A DNA stretch of 64,000 bases from Squalus acanthias (Eukaryota): contig CM059432.1 in NCBI GenBank assembly GCA_030390025.1, positions 10,912,001 through 10,976,000 on the forward strand, read 5' to 3'. Below, one piece after another: positions 8,585 to 34,422 of this stretch (position 1 is the stretch's first letter; each line of letters opens with the position of its first letter). The notes under the pieces are model-generated. The model searched no databases and was not told the origin of the DNA. It worked only from the letters and a program-made list of their open reading frames with translations. Both the position numbers and the translations under genes were made by a program.

Positions 8585-8982
8585 CATAGGAGCAGGGGTT
8601 TGCCATTCGGCACTTGGAGCCTGCCCCACCATTCAACAAGATCATGGCTGATCTTCTGCCTCAACTCCACCTTCCCGCACTATCCTTGATTCCCTTAATA
8701 TCAAAATATCTTATCGATCTCTGTCTTGAATATACTCAACGACTGAGCATCCACAGCCCTCTGGGGTAGAGAATTCCAAAGATTCACCACCCTCTGAGTG
8801 AAGAAATTCCTCCTCATCTCAGTCCTGAATGGCCGACCCCTTAGTCTGAGACTGTGACCCCCTGGTTCTAGACTCCCCAGCCAGGGGAAACACCCTCCCT
8901 GCATCTACCCTGTCAAGCCCTGTAAGAATTTTGTATGTTTCAATGAGATCACCTCTTCTAAACTCTAGAGAATATAGGCCTA
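8585..8982 (-). mobile_element. CR1 LINE 3' fragment (interrupted by a MITE)
   Basis: RRNFFTQRVVNLWNSLP motif on the minus strand. Confidence 0.88.
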
Positions 8983-9638
8983 GGGGGAAAAATTCGGTTG
9001 CTTTGTGCCTCCCGTTAGCACCCCAAGGGGTGCAAAACACCGAGCGCCCGGGCGCGGCACCGCTAACGCCTCCCGCGAAATTCAACGGGAGGTTAGCGGC
9101 GGCAAAAGCCGGTAGCGCCCCGCAGCGCTGCGCCTCCTATGATGTCATCGCTGTGCACAGCGCCCCGGCCGCAAATTTGGCCCGCGCCCCTGACCTACCG
9201 GCAGACGCTATATCTGACAGGGTCAGGGGGGTGTACGTGCGGCCGGGGCAGCGATAATTAAAGGGCAGGTGCCGGGCGGCCATTTTTTTTGGGCCGCCTG
9301 ACAGCACCTGTCCCCTCTCGCCTCCTGCTGTGGGGTGTCGGCCGCGATCGGGCAGCCCGGCACTCCTCGAGTGCCAGGCTCTTTTGCCAGCACCCCGCTC
9401 CCCAGTGGTCCAGCAGGGCCCCGGTGTGCGCTGCGCAAGGCTCCTCCCCTTTACGCGCTGCTGCACGTAGTGCTCTGATATTTAATAGGAGCGCCCCAAG
9501 AGGGAGGGGGAGTGCTTCCAGTAGCGCCCCGCCTCCTGCTTGGGGCGCTACCATTGACTTTCGGGCGCGGGAGCACTAAAAATAGCGCCCCGGCGAAGTT
9601 ATTGCCCCAAAGGGGGCGCAAGCCCATTTTCCCCCCCC
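8983..9638. mobile_element. GC-rich non-autonomous DNA transposon with TA target duplication
   Basis: TA-GGGGGAAAAAT...ATTTTCCCCCCCC-TA; splits the CR1 sequence GAATATAGGCC[TA]GTCTCTTCAATCTC. Confidence 0.8.
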
Positions 9639-9657
9639 TAGTCTCTTCAATCTCTCC

Positions 9658-10187
9658 ATGTCTGAGGAAGGATGTTCTTGCCATGGAAGGAGTTCAGTGA
9701 AGGTTCACAAGGCTGATACCTGGGATGGCAGGAATGACATATGAGGAGAGATTGGGTCGATTGGGCTTATACTCGCTGGAGTATCGAAGAATGAGAGGGG
9801 ATCTCATCGAAACATATAAAATTCTGACAGGTCTGGACAAACTAGATGCAGGAAGAATGTTCCCGATGGTCGGAGAGTCCAGAACCAGGGGTCATAGTCT
9901 AAGGATAAGGGGTAAGCCATTTAGGACAGAAATTAGAAGAATTTCTTCACCCAGAGAGTGGTGAACCTGTGGAATTCTCTACCACAGAAGGTAGTTGAGG
10001 CCAAGTCATTAAATATATTCAAGAATGAGTTAGATATATTTCTTAAAGCTAAAGGTATCGAGGGATATGGGGAGAAAGCAGGTACAGGGTACTGAGTTTG
10101 GATGATCAGCCATGATCTCATCGAATGGCGGAACAGGCTCGAGGGGCCGAATGGCCTACTCCTGCTCCTATCTTCTATGTTTCTATG
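9658..10187 (+). mobile_element. CR1 LINE 3' fragment
   Basis: LRKDVLAMEGVQ...ESRTRGHSLRI; TTCTATG tail. Confidence 0.9.
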
Positions 10188-10304
10188 TAGGACAATCCCC
10201 CCATCCCAGGAAAGTTGGTTTAATTAGTGACAACGATTAACAACGAAAGCATGAAGTGAAAAGAGGTTGTGCAGCAATATAAGCAATACCACTCACCTTA
10301 ATTA

Positions 10305-14452: not shown

Positions 14453-15249
14453 CTGAGCCACTTTTAGTAGGTGACTGGCAACGGCATTGGCTGGCACAGA
14501 TAGTCGGGCCTATGTTCGTGGATGTTGAGCAGCACCCAGGCGACAGATGAGGCTCCAGCTTTTCCAACACGAATGAGTAAAATCCACCCGTGGAGTTGGC
14601 TCTTCCCAACGGGCCCAATGAGGAGCATCAAGTGATTCAAGCAGGTGGTCTGCAGTATCTGGGTTGCCGGGTTCCTGGTACGGTTTCAATACCGCAGTGC
14701 ACTTTCTGTGCAACACATCAGAGTTCTCAGCGCACCCACTATGAATAATCGCTTTATCAGTGAAAGAAATGATGCAACCAGCAACTCAAGTCAAAGATCC
14801 TGGTCAATCGGCTAATAACGAAAGCTCTTCTATGACACACATAGTAATGTGAGCTTTAAGTGACGTGTTCTGCAACCTTTCAGTTTCCACATAAACTCTG
14901 GCTTTGTTTCAGTTCTTTGCATATGTGATTATGTCTGGATTTTTCAACTTCCTCTTTAATACTGTTCTTTCACTAAAATTATATTCATTCTCAACATTAC
15001 TGGTGGGTTTTGGGTTGGGTATTCTTATCCAAAAAGCTCTGCCAGAAAAATATTTCTTAGGTTGCAATGTGGCTGGTGTGGTTTACAATTCCTGCAAAGT
15101 TCTAACTTAAAAACGGAAAATGTACCGGAAATATCGAGCGTCCCCTGCCGCGTCCTGTGTCAGCAGTGGCTCAGTGGGTAGCACTTGAGTCAGAAGATCG
15201 TGGGTTCAGGTCCCACGCCAGGGATTTGAGCACAAAAAAAATCCATGCT

Positions 15250-15574
15250 GACACAGCGCTGCCTGCTGGTCACTGTGGGGAACAACAGGCGGACACAGCA
15301 CCGCCTGCCGGTCACTGTGGGGTACAACAGGCAGACACAGTGCCACCTGCCGGTCACTGTGGGGAACAACAGGCGGACACAGCGCCACCTGTCGGTCACT
15401 GTGGGGTACAACAGGTGGACACAGTGCCGCCTGCCGGTCACTGTGAGGTACAACAGTCTGACACAGCACCAACTGCCGGTCACTGTGGGGTACACCAGGC
15501 GGACACAGCGCCACCTGCAGGTCACTGTGGGGTACACCAGGCGAACACAGCGCCACCAGCTGGTCACTGTGGGG
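15250..15574. repeat. 42-bp tandem array, block 1 (~8 units, most diverged)
   Basis: Unit GTCACTGTGGGGTACAACAGGCGGACACAGCGCCACCTGCCG; 14-aa periodicity in the ORF track. Confidence 0.97.
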
Positions 15575-17238
15575 TTTGAATTGACAAACTTTTGAGGGCA
15601 GCCGAATTTGAGGAGGACACTCCATAATCCCTCACGGTTGATGGTGTCGAAGGCCTTTGTGAGGTCAAAGAAGGCCATGTACAGCGGTTGGTGCTGTTCC
15701 CTGCATTTCTCTTGTAGTTGACGCGCGGTGAAGATCATGTCCATTGTGCCCCTTAGTGGGCGGAATCCACATTGCGACTCTGGGAGGAGCTCTTCTGGGA
15801 GAAGGCGATTGAGGAGGATTCTTGCGATGACTTTACCTGTGGCAGACAGCAGGGAGACTCCTCTGTAATTACCGCAATCGGACTTGTCACCTTTCTTGAA
15901 GATGGTCATGATTACGGCGTCTCTGAGGTCCCCTTGCATGCTCTCCTACTTCCAAATAAGAGAAATTAGTTCATGTATGTCACCATCCTCCGCCTGCTTC
16001 ACAATGACATGCAAGCCGTGATCCTGACCAACGGATCCACCACAGACCCAATTCACGTACGGACCGTGGTCAAGCAAGGCTGTGTCATCGGACCAACGCT
16101 CTTCTCGATCTTCCTGGCTGCAATGCTCCATCTCACCCTCAGTAAGCTCCCCGCTGGAGTGGAGCTAATCTACAGAACAAACGGGAAACTGTTCAACCTC
16201 CGTCACCTCCAGTCCAGATCCAAGGTCGTCCCATCCTCTGTCATTGAATTACAGTATGCAGACGACGCTTGCATCTGCGCACACTCTGAGGCCGAACTCC
16301 AAACCATCGTCAACACCTTCACTGAAGCATACGAGAGCATAGGCCTTACACTAAACATCCGTAAGACAAAGGTCGTCTACCAACCTGCCCCCGCCACACA
16401 GTACTGCCCCCCGATTATCAAAATCCATGACGAGGCCTTGGAAAGCGTGGACCACTTTCCATACCTCGGGAGCCTACTGTCAACAAGGGCAGACGTCGAT
16501 GACAAAGTCCAACACCGCCTTCAGTGTGTCAGTGCAGCCTTCAGTCGCCTGAAGAAGAGAGTGTTTGAAGACCAGGACCTCAAACCCAGCACCAAGCTCA
16601 TGGTCTACAAAGCAGCAGTGATACCCGCCCTCCTGTATGCTTCAGAGACATGGACCATGTACAGCAGGCACCTCAAAGCACTGGAGAGGTACCGCCAATG
16701 TAGCCCCCGCAAGATCCTGCAAATCCATTGGCAGGATAGGCACACCAATGTCAGTGTTCTCGCTCAGGCCAACATCCCCAGTATCGAAGCTTTGACCACG
16801 CTCGATCAGCTCCAATGGACGGGCCACATCGTCCGCATGCCCGATACGAGACTCCCAAAACAAGCGCTCTACTCGAAGCTCCGACACGGCAAGAGAACCC
16901 CAGGTGGGCAGAGGAAACACTTCAAGGACACCCTCAAAGCCTCCTTGAAAAAGTGCAACATCCCCACCGACACCTGGGAATTCCTGGCCCAAGACCGCAC
17001 AAAGTGGTGGAGAAGCATCCGGGAAGGCACCGAACACCTCGAATCTCTTCGCCGGGAGCAAGCGGAAGCCAAGTGCAAACAGCGCAAGGAGCGCACGTCA
17101 AACCAAGCACCCCACCCACCGTCTGCCCCACCTGTGACAGAGACTGTAGGTCCCGCATTGGACTCATCAGTCACCTGAGAACTCATTTTTCGTGTGGAAG
17201 CAAGTCATCCTGGGTTCCGAGGGACTGCCTAAGAAGAA
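15575..17238 (+). mobile_element. RTE-clade LINE, 5'-truncated with 5' inversion (15575-15972 inverted)
   Basis: RT motifs LLPESQCGFR, FFDLTKAFDT (minus strand); VKQGC, LQYADD (plus strand); C-terminal CPTCDRDCRSRIGLISHLRTH; AAGAAGAA tail. Confidence 0.93.
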
Positions 17239-17675
17239 CTGTGGGGTACAACAATCTATCACAGCGCCGCCTGCCGGTCACTGTGGGGTACAACACGTGG
17301 ACACAGCACCACCTGCCAGTCACTGTGGGGTACAACAGGCGGACACAGCGCCACCTGCCAGTTACTGTGGGGTACAACAGGCGGACACAGCGCCACCTGC
17401 CAGTCACTGTGGGGTACAACAGGCGGACACAGCGCCACCTGCCAGTCACTGTGGGGTACAACACGTGGACACAGCACCACCTGCCAGTCACTGTGAGGTA
17501 CAACACGTGGACACAGCACCACCTGCCAGTCACTGTGGGGTACAACAGGCGGACACAGCGCCACCTGCCAGTCACTGTGGGGTACAACAGGCGGACACAG
17601 CGCCACCTGCCGGTCACTGTGGTGTACAACAGGCGGACACAGCGCCGCCTGCCGGTCACTGTGGGGTACAACAGG
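17239..17675. repeat. 42-bp tandem array, block 2 (~10 units)
   Basis: Same unit with CpG-to-CpA variants. Confidence 0.97.
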
Positions 17676-19146
17676 AGACTAAGATCTCCTCCCAGAGTCG
17701 CAATGCGGATTCCGCCCACTAAGGGGCACAATGGACATGATCTTCACCGCGTGTCAATTACAAGAGAAATGCAGGGAACAGCACCAACCACTGTTCATGG
17801 CCTTCTTTGATCTCACAAAGGCCTTCGACACTGTCAACCATGAGGGATTATGGAGTGTCCTCCTCAAATTTGGCTGCCCTCAAAAGTTTGTCACCATCCT
17901 CCGCCAGCTTCACGACGACATGCAAGCCATGATCCTGACCAACGGTTCCACCACAGACCCAATTCATGTACGGACCTTGGTCAAGCAAGGCTGTGTCATC
18001 GCACCAACGTTCTTCTCGATCTTCCTTGCTGCAATGCTCCATCTCACCTCAGTAAGTTCCCCGCTGGAGTGGAGCTAATTTACAGAACAAACGGGAAGCT
18101 GTTCAACCTCCATCGCCTCCAGTCCAGATCCAAGGTCGTCGCATCATCTGTCGTCGAATTACAGTATGTATAAGACGCTTGCGTCTGTGCTCACTCGGAG
18201 GTCGAATTCCAAACCATCGTCAACACCTTCACCGAAGCGTACGAGAGCATGGGCCTTACACTAAACATCCATAAGACAAAGGTCCTCTACCAACCTGCCC
18301 CCGCCGCAAAGTACTGCTCCCCGATTATCAAAATACATGACAAGGCCTTGGGCAACGTGGACCACTTTCCATACCTCCGGAGCCTACTGTCAACAAAGGC
18401 AGATGTCGATGACGAAGTCCAGCACCACCTTCAGTGCGCCAGTGCAGCCTTCGGTCGCCTGAGGAAGAGTGTTTGAAGACCAGGACCTCAAACCCAGCAC
18501 TAAGCTCATGGTCTACAGAGCAGCAGTGATTCCTGCCCTGCTGTATGCCTCAGAGACATGGACCATGTACAGCAGGCACCTCAAAGCACTGGAGAGGTCC
18601 CACCAACGCTGCCTCCGCAAGATCCTGCAAATCCATTGGCAGGATAGGCACACCAATGTCAGTGTTCTCGCTCAGGCCAACATCCCCAGCATCGAAGCTT
18701 TGACCACGCTCGATCAGCTCCAATGGACGGGTCACATCGTCCGCATGCCCAATACGAGACTCCCAAAACAAGCGCTCTACTCGGAGCTCCGACACGGCAA
18801 GAGAGCCCCAGGCGGGCAGAGGAAACACTTCAAGGACACCCTCAAAGCCTCCATGAAAAAGTGCAACATCCCCACTGACACCTGGGAATCCCTGGCCCAA
18901 GACCGCACAAAGTGGAAGGGAAGCATCCGGGAAGGCGCCGAACACCTCGAGTCTCTTCGCCGGTAGCAAGCGGAAGCCAAGCGCAAGGAGCGCACGTCAA
19001 CCCAAGCACCCAGCCCCCTTCAACCACCGTCTGCCCCACCTGTGACAGAGACTGTAGGTCCCGCATTGGACTCATCAGTCACCTGAGAACTCATTTTCAG
19101 TGTGGAAGCAAGTCATCCTCGGTTCCGAGGGACTGCCTAAGAAGAA
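17676..19146 (+). mobile_element. RTE-clade LINE, 5'-truncated, not inverted
   Basis: Same family as the 15575-17238 copy, with frameshifts and stops; same AAGAAGAA tail. Confidence 0.93.
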
Positions 19147-19605
19147 CTGTGGGGTACAACAATCAATCACAGCGCCGCCTGTCGGTCAGTGTGGGGTACA
19201 ACAGGCGGACACAGCGCCACCTGCCGGTCACTATGAGGTACACCAGGCGGACACAGCGCCACCTGCCGGTCACTGTGGGGTACAACAGGCGGACACAGCG
19301 CCACCTGCCGGTCACTGTGGGGTACAACAGGTGGACACAGCGCCGCCTGCCGGTCACTGTGGGGTACAACAGGCGGACACAGCGCCACCTGCCGGTCACT
19401 GTGGGGTACAACAGGCGGACACAGCGCCGCCTGCCGGTCACTGTGGGGTACAACAGGCGGACACAGCGCCGCCTGCCGGTCACTGTGGGGTACAACAGGC
19501 GGACACAGCGCCGCCTGCCGGTCACTGTGGGGTACAACAGGCGGACACAGCGCCGCCTGCCGGTCACTGTGGGGTACAACAGGCGGACACAGCGCCGCCT
19601 GCCGG
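19147..19605. repeat. 42-bp tandem array, block 3 (~11 units), ending ~120 bp before the SEH1L ATG
   Basis: Same unit; the last units are identical. Confidence 0.97.
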
Positions 19606-19727
19606 CTTCCTCCCGTTATTCCGGCCCGAGTGAGAGGCGCCAAAGTCTGGGGATCCACGAGTGCTGCCGGTGGTCGCCGCCCGGGACTGATTTTATTTAG
19701 TTTCCATCTTATCGAGGGCAGAGGGAG

Positions 19728-19838
19728 ATGTTCGTGGCCCGGAGCATCGCGGCCGATCACAAGGACCTCATCCACGATGTTTCCTTCGACTTCCACGGGC
19801 GAAGGATGGCGACCTGCTCCAGCGATCAGAGCGTCAAG
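19728..19838 (+). CDS. SEH1L: SEH1L (nucleoporin/GATOR2 subunit Seh1) coding exon 1
   Basis: [37 protein letters not shown] followed by GT donor at 19839; 111 bp; matches the vertebrate SEH1 N-terminus. Confidence 0.98.
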
Positions 19839-19863
19839 GTGCGGCCTCGGCCCAGGCCTCAGG

Positions 19864-21240
19864 CCCGAGTGTCCAGTCCAGGGCCTCGGGGGAGTGTCCA
19901 GTCCCAGACCCCGGGGGGAGTGTCCAGTCCCGGGCCCCGGGGGGAGTGTCCAGTCCCGGAGCCCGGGGAGAGTGTCCAGTCCCGGGGCCCGGGGAGAGTG
20001 TCCAGTCCCGGGGCCCGGGGGGAGTGTCCAGTCCCAGACCCCGGGGGGAGTGTCCAGTCCCAGACCCCGGGGGGAGTGTCCAGTCCCAGACCCCGGGGGG
20101 AGTGTCCAGTCCCAGACCCCGGGGGGAGTGTCCAGCCCCGGGGGGAGTGTCCAGTCCCAGACCCCGGGGAGAGTGTCCAGTCCCAGACCCCGGGGGGAGT
20201 GTCCAGTCCCGGACCCCGGGGGGAGTGTCCGGGCCCCGGGGGGAGTGTCCAGTCCCAGACCCGGGGGGGGAGTGTCCAGTCCCGGGGGGAGTGTCCAGTC
20301 CCAGACCCCGGGGGGAGTGTCCAGTCCCGGGGGGAGTGTCCAGTCCCGGACCCCGGGGGGAGTGTCCAGTCCCGGACCCCGGGGGGAGTGTCCAGTCCCG
20401 GGCCCCGGGGGGAGTGTCCCGTCCCGGAGCCCGGGGAGAGTGTCCAGTCCCAGACCCCGGGGAGAGTGTCCAGTCCCGGTGCCCGGGGAGAGTGTCCAGT
20501 CCCAGACCCCGGGGAGAGTGTCCAGTCCCAGACCCCGGGGGGAGTGTCCGGGCCCCGGTGGGGAGTGTCCAGTCCCAGACCCGGGGGGGAGTGTCCAGTC
20601 CCGGGCCCCGGGGGGAGTGTCCCGTCCCGGAGCCCGGGGAGAGTGTCCAGTCCCGGGGCCCGGGGAGAGTGTCCAGTCCCGGGGCCCGGGGGGAGTGTCC
20701 AGTCCCGGACCCCGGGGGGAGTGTCCAGTCCCGGACCCCGGGGGGAGTGTCCGGGCCCCGGGGGGAGTGTCCAGTCCCAGACCCGGGGGGGGAGTGTCCA
20801 GTCCCGGGGGGAGTGTCCAGTCCCAGACCCCGGGGGGAGTGTCCAGTCCCGGGGGGAGTGTCCAGTCCCGGACCCCGGGGGGAGTGTCCAGTCCCGGACC
20901 CCGGGGGGAGTGTCCAGTCCCGGGCCCCGGGGGGAGTGTCCCGTCCCGGAGCCCGGGGAGAGTGTCCAGTCCCGGGGCCCGGGGAGAGTGTCCAGTCCCG
21001 GGGCCCGGGGAGAGTGTCCAGTCCTAGACCCGGGGGGGAGTGTCCAGTCCCGGGGCCCGGGGGGAGTGTCCAGTCCCGGGGCCCGGGGGGAGTGTCCAGT
21101 CCCGGGGCCCGGGGGGAGTGTCCAGTCCCGGGGCCCGGGGGGAGTGTCCAGTCCCGGGCCCCGGGGGGAGTGTCCAGTCCCGGACCCCGGGGGGAGTGTC
21201 CAGTCCCAGACCCCGGGGGGAGTGTCCAGTCCCGGGCCTG
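19864..21240. repeat. GC-rich ~25-bp minisatellite at the start of SEH1L intron 1
   Basis: Units like GAGTGTCCAGTCCC(A/G)G(A/G)CCC(C)GGGGG, about 55 copies with higher-order repetition. Confidence 0.97.
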
Positions 21241-21399
21241 AGCCCCGGGCTGTGAGTTGGCCGACCGCTAGTCTCTCCTAGGCGGGCTCCCAATGTCTTT
21301 CAATCTGCCGCAGTCACGGTGGGCGGAGAGCCCGGGTGATTGTGGATGTTGATCACCCGGACATTGGCTCCAGAAATCGGCCCCTAGTCCCAGGAACAA

Positions 21400-21765
21400 G
21401 TGTGGGCCATTTTGCCCTTCGAGCCTGCTCCGCCATTCAGTGAGATTATGGCTGATCTGCGACCTAACTCCATATACCTGCCTTTGCCCCGTATCCCTTA
21501 ATGCCTTTGGTTAACAAAAATCTATGAATCTCAGATTTAAAATTAATAATTGATCTAGCATCAATTGCCATTTGCGGAAGAGAGTTCCAAACTTCTACCA
21601 CCCTTTGTGTGTAGAAGTGTTTCTAACTTCAATCCTGAAAGGTCTGGCTCTAATTTTAGACCATGCCCCCTACTCCTAGACTCCCCAACCAGCAGAAATA
21701 GTTTCTCTCTGTCGACCCTATCTGTTCCCCTTAATAGCTTGAAAGCTTCGATCAGAACACCCCCT
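21400..21765 (-). mobile_element. CR1 3' fragment
   Basis: Shares the 3'UTR GAGCCTGCTCCGCCATTCA with other copies. Confidence 0.75.
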
Positions 21766-22085: not shown

Positions 22086-22211
22086 CAACCTTTTACTACC
22101 GATAAAGATACTACTGATATGGGAGGGGGGGGGGAACTATTGATGTATTAATCTCTGTTTGTGATAGCCGTTGAATATTTTTTTTAAACCAATGCTGCTT
22201 TGTTGTGACAG

Positions 22212-22262
22212 GTGTGGGACAAAGGTGAAACTGGGGAGTGGCACTGCACGGCGAGCTGGAAG
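22212..22262 (+). CDS. SEH1L: SEH1L exon 2
   Basis: [25 protein letters not shown]; 51 bp, phase consistent. Confidence 0.96.
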
Positions 22263-22356
22263 GTAAGGAGCGGCTGCCGGTCGCTTGTGAGTAGTGGAGG
22301 GATCAGGATAATGACAGTGCCTCTTACCTCAACTACACTGTGTACATGTGAACACC

Positions 22357-22491
22357 AATGTTCCCTTTAAGCTGCGCAGCGCCCCAGGGGTCCCGGGGCA
22401 GGCAGTGAGCCGGCTTTTGCGTTGAAAAAACCGTGCTTGTGCAGTTATTTTGAATGGGCCACCTGGCCCAAAATGAATTATAGGGAACATT
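22357..22491. mobile_element. hAT-type MITE (same family)
   Basis: CAATGTTCCCT and AGGGAACATTG terminal inverted repeats; TSD degenerate. Confidence 0.75.
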
Positions 22492-23529
22492 GGTTGACAG
22501 GTACACCAAATCGCAATGGTTTCTTTCTGTGTGCGCGTGTGTGTGCTTGCATTGTATCCGATCTCACGAGGACTCTGATCTTGGGAGAAAATCAGACTGC
22601 ATAATCTCTCCCTGCCAAATGACCATTGTTTCAGCTCAAAACGCCGAATGCTGACAACGTCGCTGGAGGGGTTACTGAGTGCACAGGTGGAAGCTGAAGC
22701 TAAACGCAGCTAAAGCACCGTGTGTTGGCGCTCATGTCGGCTAGTTTCAGTGCAGCTCCTTCACATTGTTCAAAGCAGCAAATCCTCCAAGTGACTGACT
22801 CTGTGCAATAACCTTGGAAAAACAGAAATTGGAAAAAAATCAAACTGTTCTTCAAGTTAATCATAGTTCTTTCGATGCTTTGACTCTGTAATAGTGAGGC
22901 TCCCTTATATGTTGAGTCAATGCCAAAGTGTCCATTGGTTCAAATATGTACCTTGTTTGGATAAAATGCTGTTTCCTGTCGAGAACAGGACTCTCCGTAT
23001 GACTGCTTAAAAGAGTTTAGCTTATTACATAACAATTATAAGTAAGTATTTACACGGTAGAGAATAGAGGTATGTATTGTCAAGTTATACAGATAAAAGA
23101 GGAAGGATATTCATCTGTTTCCGATGCTGTTCTGAAGCTTGGTGTCCGGGGGGGCGGGGGGTGGTGATGTGAGAGCAGTGATTCTCCCTCAAATCCATTT
23201 CCTACTTCCTCTTTTTGCTTGTGGGAAAGGCCCCCGAGCTCCACTTAGTAACTGCACACAATGGCGCTATTAACCTTCTGGATTGTTGGGGATAGCAAGT
23301 GAAAACCAGCATCTTACCACTCTGGTGCAGGGATGAGAGCTTCAGGGTGCTCTGCTACCTTGTCCTGGTAGGAAAGTCTCACATCTTTGGGGGCGGGGGG
23401 GGAAGGGAAGAAATAAACCTTTTACTGCAAGTAATGTGAAGTAGAAAGACTCCAGTTGGAATGGTCAAAAGAAAGATGATTAAGGGGAAGCTAGATAAAC
23501 ACATGAGGGAGAAAGGAATAGAAGGTTAT

Positions 23530-23940
23530 AAGAACATAAATAATAGGAGCAGGAGTAGGCCATACGGCCCCTCGAGCCTGCTCCGCCATTCAATAAGATC
23601 ATGGCTGATCTTCAGCCTCAACTCCACTTTCCCGCCCGATCTCCATATCCCTCGATTCCCCTAGAGTCCAAAAATCCATCGATCTCAGCCTTGAATATAC
23701 TCAACGACTGAGCATCCACAGCCCTCTGGGGGAGAGAATTCCAAAGATTCACAACCCTCTGAGTGCAGAAATTCCTCTTCACCTCAGTCTTAAATGGCTG
23801 ACCCCTTATCCTGAGACTATGACTGTCAAGGCCTCTTAAGAATTTTGTACGTTTCAATGAGATCACCTCTCATTCTTCTAAAATCCAGAGAATAGAGGCC
23901 CATTCTACTCAAATCTCTCCTCATAGGACAACCCCCTCAT
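23530..23940 (-). mobile_element. CR1 3' fragment
   Basis: RNFCTQRVVNLWNSLP. Confidence 0.85.
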
Positions 23941-24141
23941 GCTAATAGTTAGATGATGTCGGGGTGGGAAGAGGCTCGTGTGGAGCAGAAACACCGACCT
24001 GCATAGACCAGTTGGGCCGTATGGCCTGCTTCTATGGCTAAGTAATTCTATGGTTAGCAGTCTAACTGAGCAGCATACCGTTGGAGCCACTCTGCTCTCT
24101 CTATCCTAATGTACGGTGTTTTATACAACCTGTTTTTGTAG

Positions 24142-24288
24142 ACGCACAGTGGGTCAGTATGGCGAGTGACGTGGGCCCACCCTGAGTTTGGCCAAGTGCT
24201 CGCCTCCTGCTCCTTCGATCGGACCGCGGCAGTGTGGGAGGAGATAGTGGGAGAGTCGAATGACAAACTGCGGGGACAGAGTCACTGG
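24142..24288 (+). CDS. SEH1L: SEH1L exon 3
   Basis: [53 protein letters not shown] bounded; 147 bp. Confidence 0.98.
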
Positions 24289-24584
24289 GTGAGTTTGGAT
24301 CTTTTCACTGCTGGCGGCGCTGGGTTTGGTTGGTGCCGCTGTGTTTGCGGTGGATCGAGACGGATGACAGTCCCCCGATCAACGAATCCATCTGAGATTT
24401 TAAAAAAATTCAATTTATAAAGCTCATCATATCATCTTAAGACAATGCTCTATTAATTGGCAAAACAATGATTCGGGGTGAAATATTAATTTTTATGCAT
24501 GTAATAAAATGGTCAGAAATGTCTGAATTGCCAGTCAGCTCGATGTATTGTGAAATGAGGTAGATGTCAGCTAAAGAAAATGTA

Positions 24585-25018
24585 AGACTTGCATTTCTGT
24601 CGTGCCTTTCACAACCTCAGGATGTCCCGAAGTGTTTTACAGCCAATGAAGTACTTTTTTGAAGTGTAGTCACTGTTGTAATGTAGGAAACGCGGCTGCC
24701 AATTTGCACCACAGCAAGCTCCCACACACAGCAATGTGATAATGACCAGATAATCTGTTCCAGTGATGCTGGTTGAGGGATAAATATTGGTCAGGACACC
24801 AGGGAGAACTCCCCTGCTCTTCTTCGAAATAGTGGCCATGGGATCTTTTATGTCCGCCTGAGAGAGCAGACGGGGCCTCAGTTTGACGTCTCACCTGAAA
24901 GACAGCACCTCCGACAGTGCAGCACTCCCTCAGCACTGCACTGGAGTGTCAGCCTAGAATTTTGCGCTCAAGTCTCTGGAGTGGGACTTGAACCCACAAC
25001 CCTCTGACTCAGACGAGA
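24585..25018 (-). mobile_element. Same SINE family
   Basis: Sequence match to other copies. Confidence 0.85.
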
Positions 25019-25608
25019 GTGGTGTGCCTCTGGTTTTTCAGGATTTTTATTTATTAATACTCGCTTTAGCCGTTCTGTTACAAATTAGGCAAAGTCCTCT
25101 CCGTGGGTACATTGCTGTGAGACAAAATATTCCCTGCGTTCACTTCTTATTAAGCCAGCACTAGAAGGCTGTGGCTCTTTTAACGGAACATTGCTCTTAG
25201 CCTTCACAGTTGGGCTTACCTCCTGCATTAGGGAGAGAGAAGGCGGGGGTTGGGGGGGGTGCGGAATCAGTGAGGATTCCTGTATTTGTGCTCCTGATTG
25301 TTGTCCTTTGATCCGTACTGGAATGTGTACGTGCGTCATTGTCAGGTGAGAATAGGAATAGGTTCAGCTGCGATGCCCCTCGCAGTCCAACAGCCTACCA
25401 CTTGTATCGGCTGACATATGAGGAATGGCCGCAGGCGCGGTATTGGAGGGCAGCTGGATCCATTGAAATTGTACGCTCGGAAAAGTCGGCGTCTCCAGCA
25501 GAGGAGGGAATATGGGGAAGAATATCGGAATAAAACAGGAAAAAAAAAGACGTTGTGACTGGCTGCATGCACATTAACAGGCCTGTAAATGCCTCTACCT
25601 CCAAACAG

Positions 25609-25820
25609 GTGAAAAGGACTACCCTCGTGGACAGCAGAACCTCAGTGACGGATGTGAAATTTGCTCCGAAACACATGGGTTTGGTTCTAGCCACCTGCTC
25701 CGCAGACGGTGTCGTGCGGATATACGAGGCCCCAGACGTCATGAACCTCAGTCAGTGGTCGTTGCAGCATGAGATCTCGTGCAAGTTGAGCTGCAGTTGT
25801 ATCTCCTGGAACCCCTCCAG
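25609..25820 (+). CDS. SEH1L: SEH1L exon 4
   Basis: [25 protein letters not shown]...[15 protein letters not shown]; 212 bp. Confidence 0.98.
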
Positions 25821-25967
25821 GTGAGAAGGTGCACGAGACACATGGGTATTTTGGCACCGAACAGCACACTTGAGAACATATTCATTTAACCCAGTGCACC
25901 AATTGTGGATAAAATAGCAACCGCGTAAAGGTAACGCATAACTTTGGTTTTTACTTAGTTAAAAGAA

Positions 25968-26383
25968 AAAAGACTTGCATTTATATAGCGCCTTTCACAA
26001 CCACCGGCCGTCCCAAAGCGCAATCACTGTTGTAATGTAGGAAATGCGGCAGCAAGATCCCAGCAATGTGATAATGACCAGATAATCTGTTATTTAGTGA
26101 TGTTGATTGAGGGATAGATATTGGCCAGGACACCGGGGATAACTCGCCTTGCTCTTCTTCGAAATAGTGGCCGTGGGATCTTTTACATCCACCTGAGAGA
26201 GCAGACGGGGCCTCGATTTAACGTCTCATCCGAAAGACGGCACCTCCGACAGTGCAGCTCTCCCTCAGTGCGGCACTGGAGTGTCAGCCTAGATTTTTGT
26301 GCTCAAGTCTCTGGAGCGGGACTTGAACCCACAGCCTTCTAACTCAGAGGCGAGGGTGCTGCCCACTGAGCCACGGCTGACAC
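25968..26383 (-). mobile_element. Same SINE family
   Basis: Sequence match to other copies. Confidence 0.85.
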
Positions 26384-26704
26384 TGAATAATATGACTAAT
26401 TGAGGGTGCCTTTCAAAGTTCGGAATAAATTTATGTTGAACTACTGTAGAGGCTGTTATATGTAAATAAAATTGATGAGGTTTCTTCCTTCGCCGCTGCG
26501 ACCACATTGAGGTGAATAGCATAGCTGCATTTAAGGGTAAGCTAGATAAACACATGAGGGAGAAAGGAATAGAAAGTTTTTTAACTAATGGTCAGTGCAC
26601 CCTTTAAGCACAGTGAAGGTTGTTACGCTGAGAGTGAGGGCTACTTCTTGTGACGCCCAACAGATTTAATTGCAAGCTGCCATTATTTGTATATAGGGCT
26701 TAAG

Positions 26705-27135
26705 AATTAAAGAAATTTACAGCACAGAAGGAAGTCATTTGGCCCATCGTGTCTGTGCTGGCTGAAAAAGAGCTATCCAGCCTAATCCCATTTTCCAGCT
26801 CTTGGTCTGTAGCCCTGTAGGTTATGGCACTTCAAGTGCATATCCAAGTACTTTTTAAATGCATTGAGAGTTTCTGCCTCTACCACCCTTTCTGGCAGTG
26901 CGTTCCAGACCCCCCACCACCCTCTGGGTGAAAGAGGTTCTCCTCAACTCCCCTCTAATCCTGCTACCAGTTACTTTAAATCTATGCCCCCTGGTTATTG
27001 ACTTCTCTGCTGAGGGAAATAGGTCCTTCCTAGCCACTCTATCCAGGCCCCTCATATTTTTATACACCTCAATTAAATCTCCCTTCAGCCTCCTCTGTTC
27101 CAAAGCAAAACAATCCCAGCCTATCCAATCTTTCT
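26705..27135 (-). mobile_element. CR1 3' fragment, ending ~40 bp before SEH1L exon 5
   Basis: RRLKGDLIEVYK...TRGHRFK. Confidence 0.85.
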
Positions 27136-27176
27136 ATATGTTAAACTTTTTTCCCCAATGTTGTTTTTCTTCACAG

Positions 27177-27275
27177 TTCCCGTTCTCACCCCCCTATGAT
27201 AGCGGTGGGAAGTGACGACAGCAGCACAAACGTAGGTGGGAAAGTTCAAATTTACGAATACAATGAAAACACCAG
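27177..27275 (+). CDS. SEH1L: SEH1L exon 5
   Basis: [40 protein letters not shown]; 99 bp. Confidence 0.97.
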
Positions 27276-27744
27276 GTAAGCCACGAAGGAGTGCGTGGAA
27301 AATACACGTTTTTTTGTTGTTGCCGTTTTTCTCCCTGATGGTGCCCACGCGTGCTGGAATAAAGTTCCACGGACAGTTTCTGTCCGTCAAGGTGCAACCC
27401 AAGTGCCAGGTCTTCACGTGCCAACCCAGACAGTGAAACATCAGCAGGCTTTTCGAGTGTGGGAAACCCCCGTGACCAAGCCGGATCGTGAACCTGCCCT
27501 TAGCCACACAAGGCCTTTCGGCAAGTGTCAGTAGCTCGGGTTCAGAAGCAGGAACCCTGGTTGGGTTTTATCTCCTCCTTAACCCCTGGGGCTTCTGAAA
27601 CCAGCTGTAGCATTATCTCACTGCTGTCCCAACTGAGATCCCTTTAAAGCACAGGACATTGCTGAAACTTGGGACCCTGCTGGTCTCGGGTGCACAGCTC
27701 AAGGTGCATGTATTTACTGAACCATCACAGGTCTCTGCAATACT

Positions 27745-28472
27745 GGCCCGTATATTCCCATCCCTACGGGTGTGTATGAGCTGTGTACACACATGTAGGG
27801 ACATCGGAAATGCCAGTTTCAGGCATGCGGAGCGCATGCGCTGAAAACCGGCATTTCCGATCTGTCAACAGATCGGACGCCTGCCCTAGAGAAGGGCCTC
27901 TGCGGGGGGGAGAGTTCCGCTTTCTGGAGAACCTCCGCCCGCTGAAAACCCTTAGAAATCTTACGCCTGGTAAAAGCAGGCATAAGGCCAGCTTTTTCCA
28001 AAAAAAAATTTTTCACTCATTACAATTTAAAAATACTTTTTTAAAAAAGGTAAGTTTATTTTTAGCCCCGTAAAAAACTTTAAATTATTTTTTTCAAAAA
28101 ATAAAAGTTTTGTTTAAACTACGTATTTAATTTAATGTAATTTTAATTCATTTTAAAAAGTGATGGTTTTTAAAAATTTATTTCATGTTTTAGTGTATTT
28201 TTGGGGTGATCTCCATTCATATATTTGACAGGTCTATCTGTCAAAAGTATGAAGGGGGATTCCCTTCTCCTATTGGCTGGCCTGGCCCACGTGATCCCAG
28301 GGACGTTTGCGAACCGCCTGCGCCCCTGGGATACGTGGGCCCTGCGCATTTCGACTGGAGAGGCCCAGGAGCGAAAGTGTCCGAACCTCGGGAGCCCTCA
28401 GGTAAGAGCGTAGATTCTTTTCCGACAGGAGACCTCCGCACGCAGGAAGCCTCCTATCGGAAATTACGGGCC
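27745..28472. mobile_element. Non-autonomous DNA transposon with AT-rich core; second copy starts at ~63038 and is cut by CR1
   Basis: GGCCCGTATATTCC and GGAAATTACGGGCC termini; ~440 bp similarity to 63038-63476. Confidence 0.75.
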
Positions 28473-28784
28473 AATATTTTTAATAAGTTATCTCTGCCTG
28501 AATCTGTTGTCCGACTGAGCCCTGGCAGGATTGTAACAAAGGAAAAAGCCAATGAGAGGTAACGAACGATCTGAGATCTCTTCGTTAATACCTGACTTAA
28601 AATTTATCTTTTTGAAATAGGGTTAAAACTGTAACATTGTGGCAGGTATTTGACTTTAGTTTAAAGAACAAATTATTTTTCTCTAACAAAATCTCTTGAG
28701 CAAGGTGTCCTCACTTTTGTCGACAGAAAGTACATGTGGTGCTGCTGTGCAATGACACAATAAATATATATAAAACTAGCTGAG

Positions 28785-29238
28785 AAAGAAAGACTTGCAT
28801 TTATATAGCGCCTTTCACGACCTCAGGACGTCCCACCCAATATAGTACTTTACAGCCAATGAAGTACTTTTGAAGTGTAGTCACCAACATTCCCTTTAAG
28901 CTACGCAGCCGGTGAGCAGGCTTCCCAATGCAAAAAACCGCACATGCACGGAAGTTTGAATGGGCCGTGCAGCCCGTGAAAAAATTACGGTGAACATTGG
29001 TAGTCACTGTTGTAATGTAGGAAACACGGCAGCCAATTACGTGCAGCAAGCTCCCACAAACAGCAGTGTGATAATGACCAGATAATCTGTTTTTGTGATG
29101 TTGATTGAGGGATAAATATTGTCCAGGACACCGGGGAGAACTCCCCCTGCTCTACTTCGAAATAGTGCCGTGGGATCTTTTACGCCCACCTGAGAGAGCA
29201 GACGGGGGCCTCGGTTTAACATCTCATCCGAAAGACGA
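28785..29238 (-). mobile_element. Same SINE family, 5'-truncated, with nested hAT MITE
   Basis: Sequence match; interrupted at 28885-28999. Confidence 0.85.
28885..28999. mobile_element. hAT-type MITE
   Basis: CAACATTCCC and GTGAACATTG ends; 8-bp TSD GTAGTCAC. Confidence 0.85.
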
Positions 29239-29606
29239 AAAACAGTAGATAATTCCTTGATGGACTATAATTATAACTTTTAATGTGTGTGTGTATGACT
29301 GATATCACTTTCCTCGAGCAGCAATGTTAAATAACGAGCATGAAAATGAAAAGAGTAACTGCAGTTCCTCCCAGCTTTGTAATCTGCACGTCCACAGAAT
29401 GCTTTCGGTGTCTCTAAAGCAATTACTATCATCTGTTGGGGCACATTTTTGACACTGCCTTGCTCCCGTTGTCCTCCCACTCGTGAAGGAACTCTTACGA
29501 TAGGCAGCCGCATTTTCAGTTTTGAGGGTTGATGTCCGAAGAAAACGTGAGCGAAGATGGAATAAATTATATGAATCCTGATTTGATATTTGTGTTTTGT
29601 TTCTAG

Positions 29607-29747
29607 GAAGTACGCAAAAGCAGAAACCCTAATTACCGTTACCGATCCTGTGCACGATATTGCATTTGCACCAAACCTTGGAAGGTCTTTCCATATTCTT
29701 GCAGTAGCAAATAAAGATGTCCGAATTTTCACACTAAAACCCTTAAG
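29607..29747 (+). CDS. SEH1L: SEH1L exon 6
   Basis: [51 protein letters not shown]; 141 bp. Confidence 0.97.
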
Positions 29748-30169
29748 GTGGGAAGTCCTAATTTCTGGTTTACCTACTGTATTTAATATCCCCAAAGCCA
29801 TTTCGTATTTAAGCTATGAGATAGAAAGAATTTGCATTTATGTAGCATCTTATCATGGGTGTTCCAAAGTACCACCACACATACAATAATTTTGAATTGT
29901 AGTCACTGTTGTTTTGTAGGAGAATGCAGCAGGTATTTTGCAAATAGCAGTGATAACTAGTTGTTCTATATTTTTTGATGATGTTGTGGTGTTAGTTGAG
30001 ACAAGAATGTTGGCCAGAGCTGCTCTGCATATAGTGCCGTGGGATCTTTATCATCCGCCTGAATGGGCAAAGGATTGCATTTCCAACAGTGAGCACTCCC
30101 TCAAGAATAAGAAAGAATTTGAATTTATATAGCATCTTTCGTGACCTCAGTATGTCCAAAAGCACTTTG

Positions 30170-30900
30170 CAACTTGCATTTGTAAAGCGCCTTTAATGTA
30201 AAAAAAAAAAATGACCCAAGGCGCTTCACAGGTGTGTAATCAGACAAAAATTAACACCGAGCCAAAGAACGAGATATTCGGACATTTGGTAGGTTTCAAG
30301 GATGAGAGAGGCGGAGAGGTTTACGGAGGGACTTCCAGAGCTTAGAGCCGAGATGGCTGAAGGGTGGAGCGAAAGAAGTGCGGGATTCACCAGAGTTGGA
30401 GGAATGTAGAGTTCTCGTAGGGCTGGAGAAGGTTACAGAGATGGGGATTTTAACACCGGGATCAAAATTTTAAAATCGAGGCGTTGCCTGGCCAGGAGCC
30501 AATGTAGGTCAACAAGCACGGGTGAACGGGACTTGGTGCAAGTTAGATTACGGGTAGCGGAGTTTTGGGATGAGCTCAGGTTTATGGAGGGTGGAAAATT
30601 GGGAGGCCGTCCAGAAGAGCGTTGAAATAGTCAAGTCTGGAGGTAACAAAAGCATGGATGGGGGGGGTTTTAGCAGCAGGTGGCTGAGGCAGGGACAGAG
30701 ATGGGCGATATTACGGAGGTGGAAGTAGACGGACTTAGTGATGGATAGGATATGGAGTCGGAAGCTCAGCTCGGGGTCAGATAGGACTCCGAGGTTGCGA
30801 ACAGTCTGGTTCAACCCAAGACGGTGGCCAGGGAGGGGGATCAAATAACTGACGAGGGACCGGACTTTGACAAAGACAATGGCTTTGGTCTTCCAAATGT
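30170..30900 (-). mobile_element. L2 3' portion (degraded)
   Basis: VRNLGVLSDPELSF...YFHLRNIA. Confidence 0.82.
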
Positions 30901-31544
30901 TTACAGCCAATGAAGTACTTTAGAAATGTAGTCACTGTTGTAATGTAGGAAACGCGGCAATAAATTTGCGCACAGCAAGGTCCCACAAACAGCAAGAAGA
31001 TAATGACCAGATAATCTGTTTTAGTGATGTTGATTGAGGGATAGATATTGGCCGACGTGTCAGCCTGGATTAAGTGCTCAAGTCTCTGGAGTGCAGCTTG
31101 AAACCACGACCTTCTGACTTGGTAGCGAAGGATGCCACCCACTGAGTCACGGCTGATGCTTAACTCAGTGCTCAGTGGGGTTTGAAATCGCACCATTTGA
31201 CTGATTAGCACTTTATACGTTTTTAAAAACATTCTCCCAAAAGTAAAATATTCTGTGAATGTAAAAGTGTGTTTATAAATTTTTCAATTCTGTCTGTTAA
31301 TTTAATACATGTCTTAACTTGATCATTATTTTACGATACCAGTTGGGTTGTACCTCTCCCCATCACAACTGTTCATAATTGTAAGACAGCGATTCTACCA
31401 ATTAGGACAGGAAGCCATAACAATTTTTTTTTTAAATTATAAATATTTTTGTTAGTTTTAATAACAGAAGAATGAAGGGAGAGGTTAAGAGAAACTTCAG
31501 TTGTTCAGACATGGAATGCCTGATTGGAAACCGCAGTAGACACA

Positions 31545-31865
31545 ACAACAAGTTGCATTAATATAGCCACATAAGGAGAAATTAGGGCAGATTGGTCAAA
31601 GAGGTAGGTTTTAAGGAGCGTCTTAAAGGAGGAAAGAGAGGCAGAGAGGTTTAGGGAGGGAATTCCAGAGCTAAGGGCCGAGGCAACTGAAGGCACGGCC
31701 GCCAATGGTGGAGCGATTAAAATCAGGGATGCTCAAGAGGCCAGAATTGGAAGAGCGCAGAGATCTCTGAGGGTTGTGGGGCTGGAGGAGATTACGGAGA
31801 TAGGGAGGGGTGAGGCCATGGAGGGATTTGAAAACCAGGATGAGAATTTTAAAATCAGGGCGTTA
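31545..31865 (-). mobile_element. L2 3' fragment
   Basis: SSFKTLLKTYLF. Confidence 0.8.
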
Positions 31866-32173
31866 TAAAGCTTTTAAAAGGGAAGTGGATAAACAAAAAC
31901 AATATGGGGAAAGGACAGGGGAATGGGACGAAGTGTTTAGCTCTTTCACAGGGCAGTTGAGCTTAAGGGCCTCCTGTGCTGTAAGATTCGATGATTTAAC
32001 AATACTACTGAAAAGATCCTTTTGATGAATAACTCCCGGCCCAAGACCGCTGCATTTTGTTTCACCCTGATCCTTCAGTAGTAATCTGATGACTTCTAAA
32101 CTGTTGCGCAGCCAATAAAAATAAGCATTAAACCTTTATCATCATCTTTTTCCCCCCCACCCCCACCCCCCAG

Positions 32174-32331
32174 AAAAGATTTGAGCTGTTCGGGAGGGCC
32201 AACCAAATTTGAAATTCAGACAGTGGCACAGTTCGATAACCACAACTCGCAGGTATGGCGTGTGAGCTGGAACATCACTGGTACGGTCTTGGCGTCCTCT
32301 GGAGATGATGGATGTGTCAGATTATGGAAAG
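32174..32331 (+). CDS. SEH1L: SEH1L exon 7
   Basis: [57 protein letters not shown]; 158 bp. Confidence 0.97.
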
Positions 32332-33559
32332 GTGATCTTGAATTTCTAAGCATAATTCGGGTAACATCAAACAATTACTTGGATTGTATAGTATTGTAAT
32401 TATTGAGAGGTGTAGTTGAAGATTGGTAATTTGCCGATCTCAGTACAGGTGAGTGACTATCACTGAGGTGGTTTTATTTCACTTTATTTGACTTCCCATT
32501 GTGCTGTTGGCATTATTACCCTGTTAGACAGGGATATTGTCACATGGACATTTAACATCGTGATCTACCCACTACAAGTTTTGTAGCAATGTGACATTTT
32601 CAGCTGTTTAAATAAGGATAAAAAAATATTATTCCAACCTTCGGTTTCATCTGCAATATGAATGCTAGTGTAAACCGAAAGCTGGTTATGCAACTTCGAG
32701 GATGGTTGGTTATTAATTAATGGCCCTACAAGATGGTCATTGTTGTTCAGAGACCAAAGAGCTGAAAGGAGAGATGTACCACCTTGTGTAGCTGATTACT
32801 TTGGTGTGAAACTGAGTTTTGAAACACCACTGGCTGCTACTTTTCTTGTACCTCATTTTATAGTTGTGCCCTGGATCTGTAATCTAATTTCAGCCACGCA
32901 ACTTGATTCCCTGATTCATAGAATAAGTCTCTCTATTTTTGCAGAGCAGTTTTATGAATCGGGAGTGGGTGGGGGGGCATACACAAAAACACCTTTCTGA
33001 CAGTGGGCTCCCTCAATTGTTCATCAAATGCATCCAATGAGTAACCCGGCCGTACAGATCAGGGTTTGCAGAAGGAGCACTACGCTTGACCTCAGTCACC
33101 CCCCCCCCCAGGTGACGGAGGGGAAAAGTGGCCGGGGTTCCAGCTCCTGACTGATATCCAGTGAGCATTATTGGAAGTGAACCTTGATGAATGGCTGTGA
33201 AGAACTACAGCACTAGAAAAGCCAGCCTACACTCAGCATCTTACTGCCACCAGCGCTGTGTGTCTGTACACCAGCAAGGACCCAGCACCTTCAGGGGGGG
33301 GGCGGGGTGGAATTGGTGAGAAGTAAAAAGAAAGCTGTTCTCGAACATCATTAAGAGGCGGAGGTTGAAGGTAAGGGGAAAACCACTGGATGGGAGAACA
33401 AACTGATGCTTGGAAACTTCGACCAATGGAAATTATCCAGGTGAGTCTACCAGTTTTTAGTTCATCTTGATAACTAATTATCATTAGGACAAGACCCAAC
33501 CGATTTAATAGACCCAGATGGAAATTAAGTACACTGGAGAAAGAATGAAGCTGGATTCC

Positions 33560-34112: not shown

Positions 34113-34259
34113 AACTGTGGCATAGGTCGCGGGTTGAAAGCACATTGATCCATCCCGTAAAATGCATGAAATGTTAATTTGTGTTCACTGGGGTTCTTTA
34201 ATGCTTAAAATGCATACCACTGTTGACTGAAGTTCCGATGATTTATTTTTATTTTTCAG

Positions 34260-34422
34260 CTAATTATATGGACAATTGGAAATGCACTGGCATATTGAAA
34301 GGGGATGGAAGTCCTGTAAATAGTGCCTTAAACCAACAGTCATTGGGAATTCTTAATTCTTCCTCAGCATTAAGCAATACATCCTTACAGAGTACACTTA
34401 ATGGATCATCTGCTGGAGGAAG
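34260..34422 (+). CDS. SEH1L: SEH1L exon 8
   Basis: [22 protein letters not shown]...LNGSSAGG(R); CAG acceptor, AG|GTAGG donor. Confidence 0.96.

Follow-up and report, generated by a model that had tools for sequence, protein, structure and literature searches.

CTCF sites are spread by transposons, and the mammalian X chromosome has supplied most known examples of tandem repeats that bear them. The closest described relative of the locus considered here is DXPas34 at the mouse Tsix promoter, which, like the shark array with its predicted sites, is promoter-proximal and CpG-rich, comes in several blocks and carries one CTCF site per monomer; its monomers measure 30-70 bp in rodents, and the repeat is restricted to one lineage and varies in copy number between species (PMC3149622). 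DXZ4, FIRRE and ICCE are also tandem CTCF-site arrays; their occupancy follows CpG methylation, and on the inactive X they make up megadomain borders and superloops, with a unit of 3 kb in the case of DXZ4 (PMC6985041). Extended CTCF sites, for example those of the IL3 and HOXA9 insulators, likewise join a core through a 6-bp spacer to an upstream module (M2) (PMC12885311; PMC10484683). Lamprey, chicken and human use this two-part motif (PMC5504073), 11 fingers are present in shark CTCF (PMC7471279), and oriented CTCF motifs lie at TAD borders in skate (PMC10115646). FIMO-style CTCF prediction by itself proved unreliable even for human Hox clusters (PMC5504073).

The window, a 64-kb stretch of shark DNA, contains at 15250-19605 a 42-bp repeat of about 29 copies (7.8 + 10.4 + 11.0), all on one strand and with the CTCF motifs on the minus strand. 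Period, count and strand are as an earlier, sequence-only reading had given them, but its single array breaks up into three blocks of 8, 10 and 11 units with two dead LINE fragments between them, at 15576-17237 and 17676-19145, which that reading had left unmentioned. Of the 4,356 bp, 1,224 are repeat DNA, and the remainder belongs to the two reverse-transcriptase-bearing fragments. Block 1 (15250-15575, minus strand; 7.8 copies) is the most diverged, with a mean of 3.0 differences per unit, block 2 (17238-17675, minus strand) holds 10.4 copies, and the promoter-proximal block 3 (19146-19605, minus strand) holds 11 copies with a mean of 1.3 differences per unit. Judged from the window, the locus does not belong to the satellite DNA class, which would form one continuous array or occupy many loci, since the repeat lies in three blocks of 326-460 bp and blastn found no further copy of the unit outside them in the window. 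Long open reading frames run across the repeats and are read as by-products of stop-free units, and a coding role for them was set aside on that ground.

LINE fragment 1 (15576-17237, plus strand) extends from the reverse transcriptase to the 3' tail and was delimited with Pfam RVT_1 on both strands and with blastn. The 5' part (about 15580-15974) lies in reverse orientation, and a few bases are duplicated where the orientation switches, a layout which we take to be that of a twin-priming insertion. LINE fragment 2 (17676-19145, plus strand) is 5'-truncated without inversion and has stops in all three frames; it differs from fragment 1 by 83 substitutions in 1,249 aligned bases, and its 3' junction is the same. 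The RVT_1 matches in the inserts have E-values of 2.4e-13, 1.5e-18 and 6.8e-19, while Pfam at a loose threshold gave sub-threshold matches only for three more LINE open reading frames; judged by a short trinucleotide tail and a zinc-finger-like C-terminal end, the inserts are presumably RTE-like. The first unit after fragment 1 bears a 6-bp substitution scar (17254-17259, plus strand) that is repeated with one difference at 19162-19167 after fragment 2 and is also seen in contigs from four organisms (A, B, C and E). On the far side, the 5' head of a tRNA-type SINE (15161-15254, plus strand), recognised by aligning it with five further copies from the window, ends where the array begins, whereas those five run on into the SINE body. 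The last 5 bases of the head are common to the first unit, and at this microhomology junction we infer a probable deletion. Derivation of the 42-bp unit itself from a neighbouring SINE or LINE was rejected, the alignments to three SINE copies and to LINE fragment 2 being matched by 66 to 181 of 300 shuffles; for SINE, LINE, promoter and upstream flank alike, no alignment rose above shuffles.

On its other side, the array ends 122 bp before the ATG of SEH1L at 19728, in agreement with the distance of about 120 bp given earlier. The 122 bp between them (19606-19727, plus strand) are a unique, putative promoter or 5' UTR segment inside a CpG-island-like stretch at 19251-20000 (GC 0.66-0.67, CpG o/e 0.78-0.81). 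The first coding exon (19728-19838, plus strand) was assigned by tblastn with a named shark SEH1, which also gave eight further exon matches from 22209 to 38954, and an internal exon has a PDB match with an E-value of 1.6e-49. At the start of intron 1 lies an unrelated 26-bp minisatellite of about 55 copies (19867-21238, no strand assigned), whose best CTCF score of -0.6 bits serves as a local control. Pfam on two upstream open reading frames, four short motifs and a reading of 8700-10300 revealed no upstream neighbour gene, one of the two frames being another reverse transcriptase by Pfam, and Rfam returned 0 matches over 14500-21500.

The sequence-only reading had proposed that the minus strand of each unit matches the CTCF core plus the upstream module at a spacing of 6 bp, and matrix score, module consensus and shuffles all bear this out. 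The bit scores rest on a core matrix set up for this analysis and not on one from a database. On this matrix, the best unit core reaches 20.1 bits, a score attained by 9 of 50,000 dinucleotide shuffles, and a 15.3-bit core variant is attained by 125 of 50,000; none of the shuffles reaching either score also had the upstream module. The unit thus scores better than GC-matched shuffles, a comparison that could have overturned the motif match. Five further tandem arrays from the window all stay below 0, at -0.6 to -11.9 bits, and at p < 1e-4 the matrix finds 26 of the 29 units, compared with 15 matches in the rest of the window where 12.8 are expected. One full extended site lies at 19254-19288 on the minus strand, with the module at 19288-19279, the spacer at 19278-19273 and the core of 19 positions at 19272-19254 (20.1 bits, p about 9e-8 on this matrix). 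Against the composite consensus in the S3-S6 material of PMC12885311, the module carries the preferred base at 7 of 10 positions and an allowed one at 9 of 10, a match equalled in 64 of 20,000 shuffles. It is present at full length in 27 of the 29 units, the exceptions being a unit at 15548 that is cut by the LINE and the terminal half unit at 19590. The T and C named as base-specific in the ZF3-11 structure report (PMC10484683) are invariant in all 27 complete modules, in a register mapped in this analysis.

The copies are nevertheless not the equivalent full sites they had been taken for. The core reaches at least 14.8 bits in 17 of the 29 units and at least 19.5 bits in 7; if a good site is defined as a core of at least 14.8 bits plus an upstream module with 9 of 10 allowed bases, 13 of 29 units qualify as predicted good sites, clustered and all on the minus strand, with 8 of them in block 3. 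Cores of at least 14.8 bits occur in 5 of 8 units of block 1, 3 of 10 of block 2 and 9 of 11 of block 3, where 8 of the 11 have the upstream module as well. Unit types at 20, 15, 11 and 8 bits occur naturally within the locus. Matrix positions 6 and 7 of the unit are G instead of the A and C favoured by strong sites (PMC11828424), and 12 of the 29 units, both terminal ones included, have a disfavoured C at core position 12, which may be ancestral.

The distal blocks 1 and 2 are decaying, while the motifs of the promoter block are intact. Of their CpGs, block 1 retains 13 of 23 and block 2 16 of 29, together 29 of 52, as against 31 of 32 in block 3 (Fisher p = 3.5e-5, an overstatement because the units are not independent). 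Recent homogenisation of block 3 would yield an identical CpG picture. A CpG occupies core positions 2-3 of every intact unit, and methylation at core position 2 blocks CTCF binding (PMC10484683). This methylation-sensitive cytosine has been lost in 7 of the 10 units of block 2 through a C-to-T change that costs 8.6 bits and leaves these units at 8-11 bits. Outside CpGs, variants occur at 9 of 29 motif positions and at 6 of 13 spacer or linker positions, numbers too small to show constraint; no depletion of variants at motif positions is visible across the 29 units.

The 42-bp unit was found in all four sequencing runs examined (organisms A, B, C and E), and tandem unit joints are listed in two of the four; both the unit and the LINE junction occur in runs of three organisms other than that of the window. 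None of the contigs covers 19607-19728, a gap that carries no weight because records are dropped by a filter. In organism E, 62-bp pieces that show 0 and 1 differences against the promoter end stand beside pieces with 4/41, 5/59 and 10/61 differences, and some units are altered at core position 1 and in the module. A metagenome scan with a 23-letter pattern taken from the unit gave 0 matches, a result that says nothing about a shark locus.

The reading we favour, at a probability of about 0.55, is that this extended-CTCF minisatellite arose by neutral amplification of a real site and that block 3 is likely bound and would form a barrier that faces upstream. The seed would have been a working CTCF site where the CpG island of SEH1L ends on its upstream side, multiplied by slippage or unequal exchange, much as the non-CTCF unit in intron 1 would have been. 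LINE insertions would then have moved blocks 1 and 2 off the island, where germline methylation and deamination may have eroded them, which would explain why about 8 of the 13 good sites lie in block 3. Given the CpG at core positions 2-3, occupancy would track methylation state, and since the motifs are minus-strand, bound CTCF would turn its N-terminal side upstream and halt cohesin and enhancers coming from there. Selection for the amplification need not be assumed; the whole effect may come from one or a few sites. Weighing against this reading are the bases at matrix positions 6, 7 and 12, the possible recent homogenisation of block 3 and the poor record of FIMO-style prediction used by itself. 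The earlier proposal that a promoter CTCF site was tandemly amplified into a multi-site insulator or loop anchor therefore survives in part: tandem amplification is the likely origin, and binding of block 3 as a boundary is likely as well, but an insulator of 29 sites is an overstatement, because most copies, chiefly those of blocks 1 and 2, are weakened, because two LINE insertions were tolerated, because no depletion of motif-position variants is visible, and because the same CpG island also spawned the unrelated 55-copy minisatellite.

That selection keeps both copy number and motif quality, with more oriented sites making a stronger boundary, appears doubtful. Insulation does grow with the number of strong CTCF sites (PMC11828424), two to four tandem copies were needed in one screen as cited in PMC12885311, and 42 bp correspond to four helical turns and about one 11-finger footprint, as extrapolated from the 35-bp ZF3-11 oligonucleotide of PMC10484683. 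The array is moreover common to four organism labels, and organism E combines near-identical with diverged pieces. Against this stand the altered units of organism E, the tolerated LINE insertions, the spread of the costly C-to-T change through block 2 and the scarcity of informative variants. We would likewise give little credence to the broader idea that clustered CTCF boundaries of cartilaginous fishes come about without transposons, through footprint-sized minisatellites that multiply a promoter site into a phased, co-oriented battery, of which selection keeps an intact, unmethylated run beside housekeeping promoters while distal copies decay; if true, tunable insulators would arise repeatedly by this route, which would also offer a natural copy-number series for CTCF dosage. 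It also seems unlikely that the array, real as its founding site may be, is an inert VNTR, methylated or unoccupied in most tissues and without boundary effect. Such a fate would suit the blocking CpG in every intact unit and the past methylation that the CpG decay of blocks 1 and 2 shows, and there are tandem repeats with CTCF sites that can be methylated on one allele and unbound there, while X inactivation is little affected by deleting Dxz4 or Firre (PMC6985041); block 3, however, keeps nearly all its CpGs in the CpG-island-like stretch of a housekeeping gene.

Less probable still is a docking role, in which bound promoter CTCF brings upstream enhancers to SEH1L or positions nucleosomes without insulating, since such an upstream module characterises insulator-type sites (PMC12885311). 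Neither a gene nor an enhancer came to light in the 15 kb upstream, which also speaks against docking. Classical hypervariable minisatellites have a G-rich core, and a generic GC-rich minisatellite of this type might merely resemble a CTCF site. Sharks are rich in simple tandem repeats (10.1101/2022.10.17.512540) and the window alone holds six unrelated arrays, so that many repeat units are on trial genome-wide, and if the 15.3-bit variant is ancestral, the core by itself is a 1-in-400 event. With the shared G-rich 9-mer held fixed, however, the core score is attained in only 4-6 shuffles out of 100,000, the module in about 460 and both in none, which rules out the classical core as the entire explanation and makes chance resemblance very improbable; a chance origin would not, in any case, keep CTCF from binding such a sequence.

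The locus belongs to a kind already known, the CTCF-site minisatellite of the DXPas34 type, with which it shares short tandem monomers, each with a (here predicted) CTCF motif, beside a promoter. At present the locus is a strong motif prediction, whereas for DXPas34 there are binding and deletion data, a role in X inactivation and possible derivation from a mobile element (PMC3149622). IL3- and HOXA9-type sites are single, conserved and experimentally bound (PMC12885311; PMC10484683). The A at module position 8 of the shark unit recurs in the HOXA9 boundary site (PMC12885311), its CpG at core positions 2-3 is as in H19 sites, and two of its module bases are non-preferred. The locus further offers an allele series (20, 15, 11 and 8 bits) and a gradient of decay away from the CpG island, and is suited to testing how boundary strength depends on site number at minimal spacing and whether such arrays reflect selection or are a by-product of minisatellite turnover. 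In contrast to DXPas34, the shark array adjoins a housekeeping nucleoporin gene, has no source element that was found, is split by two LINEs and has a unit that fits the core plus the ZF9-11 module. Compared with DXZ4, its unit is about one footprint and its repeats total 1.2 kb, which makes it a compact, non-mammalian case in which the extended predicted CTCF site is the whole repeat unit.

The 42-bp repeat upstream of SEH1L is a strong motif prediction for an array of putative CTCF sites. The sequence-only reading had taken it for a single satellite of about 29 copies over 15250-19605; Tandem Repeats Finder instead resolves three separate minus-strand blocks, numbered here toward the gene, at 15250-15575 (7.8 copies), 17238-17675 (10.4 copies) and 19146-19605 (11.0 copies), the repeat occupying 1,224 of these 4,356 bp. 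That all copies point the same way was borne out, one strand being used throughout the three blocks, as was the claim that the array ends about 120 bp before the ATG, since 122 unique bases lead from it to the SEH1L start codon at 19728. SEH1L itself was identified by nine exon matches and a PDB match, and the best three of 117 matches to a variable exon are the sharks Heptranchias (81%), Cetorhinus (74%) and Rhincodon (68%). The unit was not found elsewhere in the 64-kb window. On the left, the array abuts the head of a tRNA-type SINE lacking the SINE body, with five bases common to both.

The window was scored with a 19-column matrix taken to be JASPAR MA0139.1, the check on it being of its column sums (913 to 908). 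It finds a core match at p < 1e-4 in 26 of the 29 units, each time on the minus strand. The rest of the window has 15 such matches where 12.8 are expected, the best of them at 14.2 bits. In its most frequent form the unit core scores 20.1 out of 26.1 bits, a value that 9 of 50,000 circular dinucleotide shuffles reach (9 of 20,000 in a first run); a 15.3-bit variant is reached by 125 of 50,000, and no shuffle reaching either score carries the upstream module too. The proposed module is likewise present. Compared with the composite consensus CTGCAGTTCC-N5/6-core of the PMC12885311 S1 File, whose allowed-base columns follow the PDF layout and may be misaligned, it lies at a 6-bp spacer and shows the preferred base at 7 of its 10 positions and an allowed base at 9. 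This module match is equalled by 64 of 20,000 shuffles. The remaining base is an A at position 8, which the HOXA9 boundary site also has (PMC12885311). Two module bases, a T and a C, are listed as base-specific in the ZF3-11 structure (PMC10484683), and in the register mapped here both are invariant in all 27 complete modules.

Five other tandem arrays in the window score between -0.6 and -11.9 bits. The G-rich 9-mer of the unit may be a classical minisatellite core, and such a core alone was considered as the source of the match and rejected: among 100,000 shuffles with the 9-mer held fixed, only 4-6 reach the CTCF core, about 460 reach the module and none reaches both. Scoring with a mammalian matrix is reasonable here because the two-part motif is in use in lamprey, chicken and human (PMC5504073), shark CTCF has eleven zinc fingers (PMC7471279) and oriented CTCF motifs occur at skate TAD borders (PMC10115646); the lamprey study also describes motif scanning alone as a poor predictor of binding (PMC5504073). 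The 42-bp period corresponds to four helical turns and roughly one 11-finger CTCF footprint, and CTCF proteins bound at this period would sit in phase; the agreement may be coincidence.

Both gaps between the blocks (15576-17237 and 17676-19145) are occupied by 3'-terminal fragments of a single LINE family, in which three ORF segments match Pfam RVT_1, and both contain stop codons. The fragments are 91.7% identical (83 substitutions in 1,249 bases). Their 5' ends differ, one showing a twin-priming-type inversion with about 180 extra bases and the other a plain truncation, which points to two separate insertions. Yet the phase of the 3' junction is identical in the two (15576-17259 and 17676-19167), and the same 6-bp substitution scar, with one difference between its copies, follows 16 bases beyond it (17254-17259 and 19162-19167); the 3' parts are about twofold closer (20 of 490 substituted) than the 5' parts (63 of 759; p 0.003). 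Gene conversion between direct repeats is our best guess for this 3' likeness; duplication followed by changes, or 3' transduction, may account for it instead. A weak CTCF-like motif (12.2 bits) also lies inside the LINE, at 15744-15762 and 17713-17731, on opposite strands because part of the first fragment is inverted.

The copies are unequal. Cores of at least 14.8 bits are found in 5 of 8, 3 of 10 and 9 of 11 units of blocks 1, 2 and 3, and 3, 2 and 8 of these, 13 of 29 units in total, also have a good module. Core positions 2-3 form a CpG in every intact unit, and methylation there prevents CTCF binding (PMC10484683); in block 2 the cytosine of this CpG has become T in 7 of 10 units, at a loss of 8.6 bits. 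Intact CpGs number 13 of 23, 16 of 29 and 31 of 32 in blocks 1 to 3 (Fisher's p = 3.5e-5, counting units of common ancestry as independent). We infer that the distal blocks may be methylated in the germline and block 3 protected within the CpG-island-like stretch 19251-20000, while recent homogenisation of block 3 would be expected to give the same picture. Constraint on the motif is not clear from the variant counts: counted by hand, with broken ends and the pair of positions 12-13 excluded, non-CpG variants affect 9 of the 29 positions in the motif and 6 of the 13 in spacer or linker. At matrix position 12 a C stands in both terminal units and in both post-LINE units, so this weaker variant may be ancestral, the stronger T perhaps being itself a CpG transition.

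A query of block 3, promoter and exon 1 matched 24 sequencing runs carrying six organism codes and one blank, and contigs were compared over 19544-19728 in one large run each for four organisms: A (X1), possibly the window's own species, B (X5) and C (X7), both from one study, and E (X17). The unit is matched in all four (29, 21, 29 and 5 contigs for A, B, C and E), with tandem joints in A and E and loose contig ends continuing into more unit sequence in B and C. The scarred post-LINE unit occurs in all four runs, and loose letters extend into the LINE tail in A, B and E, which argues that array and insertion are older than the splits of these organisms and rules out an assembly artefact. E holds a mixture of intact and decayed units like that of the window: 62-bp pieces differ from the promoter end of the array at 0 and 1 positions, further pieces at 4 of 41, 5 of 59 and 10 of 61, and some carry changes in the module or at the first core position. 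Contigs cover the promoter in none of the four runs, so the array's place beside SEH1L is established for the window alone; a single-copy ancestral unit was not seen among them.

The most probable origin is a working extended CTCF site, at the edge of a CpG island, that slippage or unequal exchange multiplied. The right array end (19586-19608) coincides exactly with core position 1, which leaves a core of 12.3 bits that lacks the module; a pair of cores spaced 42 bp apart could have started the initial misalignment. Tandem Repeats Finder reports six unrelated tandem arrays in the window, and shark genomes have plentiful simple repeats in GC-rich parts (10.1101/2022.10.17.512540, 10.1101/2025.06.08.657570); as a rough inference, a few arrays per shark genome would catch a CTCF site without selection. 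A 26-bp minisatellite in intron 1 (19867-21238, about 55 copies, about 76% GC), also a product of the island, has no CTCF match; it begins 28 bp past the exon-1 donor, so exon 1 is flanked on both sides by tandem repeats. A 45-bp array (41833-42164, 7.5 copies, 94% matches) lies where CpGs are very dense (o/e 1.41 over 42001-42500), downstream of the final exon match to SEH1L. A 37-bp array is noted for 527-1035 and 1355-1560, with letters like its unit passing straight into a SINE copy at that copy's 5' end, near 1380. Located 10 kb 5' of SEH1L, a CpG-island-like segment of 650 bp (8990-9640; GC 0.66, o/e 0.88) yielded no gene and is possibly a repeat or regulatory element.

Block 3 would be bound by CTCF if unmethylated. 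Because its motifs are on the minus strand, bound CTCF would point its N-terminal side upstream. Enhancers are blocked more strongly on that side (PMC12885311), and for this reason block 3 would close an upstream loop and shield the SEH1L promoter. Insulation is predicted to grow with the number of strong sites, in a model with 180-bp spacing (PMC11828424), against 42 bp here.

No description of the SEH1L array or of such arrays in sharks was found in the literature covered, mostly papers outside the subscription journals and the main text of preprints. Shark CTCF ChIP-seq is reported to be in Hara et al. (2018), as cited in PMC7471279. As a kind, CTCF-site minisatellites are already known from DXPas34 at the Tsix promoter, a CpG-rich, multi-block minisatellite with one CTCF site per 34-bp monomer (PMC3149622). 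DXZ4 and FIRRE are CTCF-bearing repeats too, but larger, and their deletion is mostly tolerated (PMC6985041). By analogy with DXPas34, the SEH1L array adds a predicted case to this kind.
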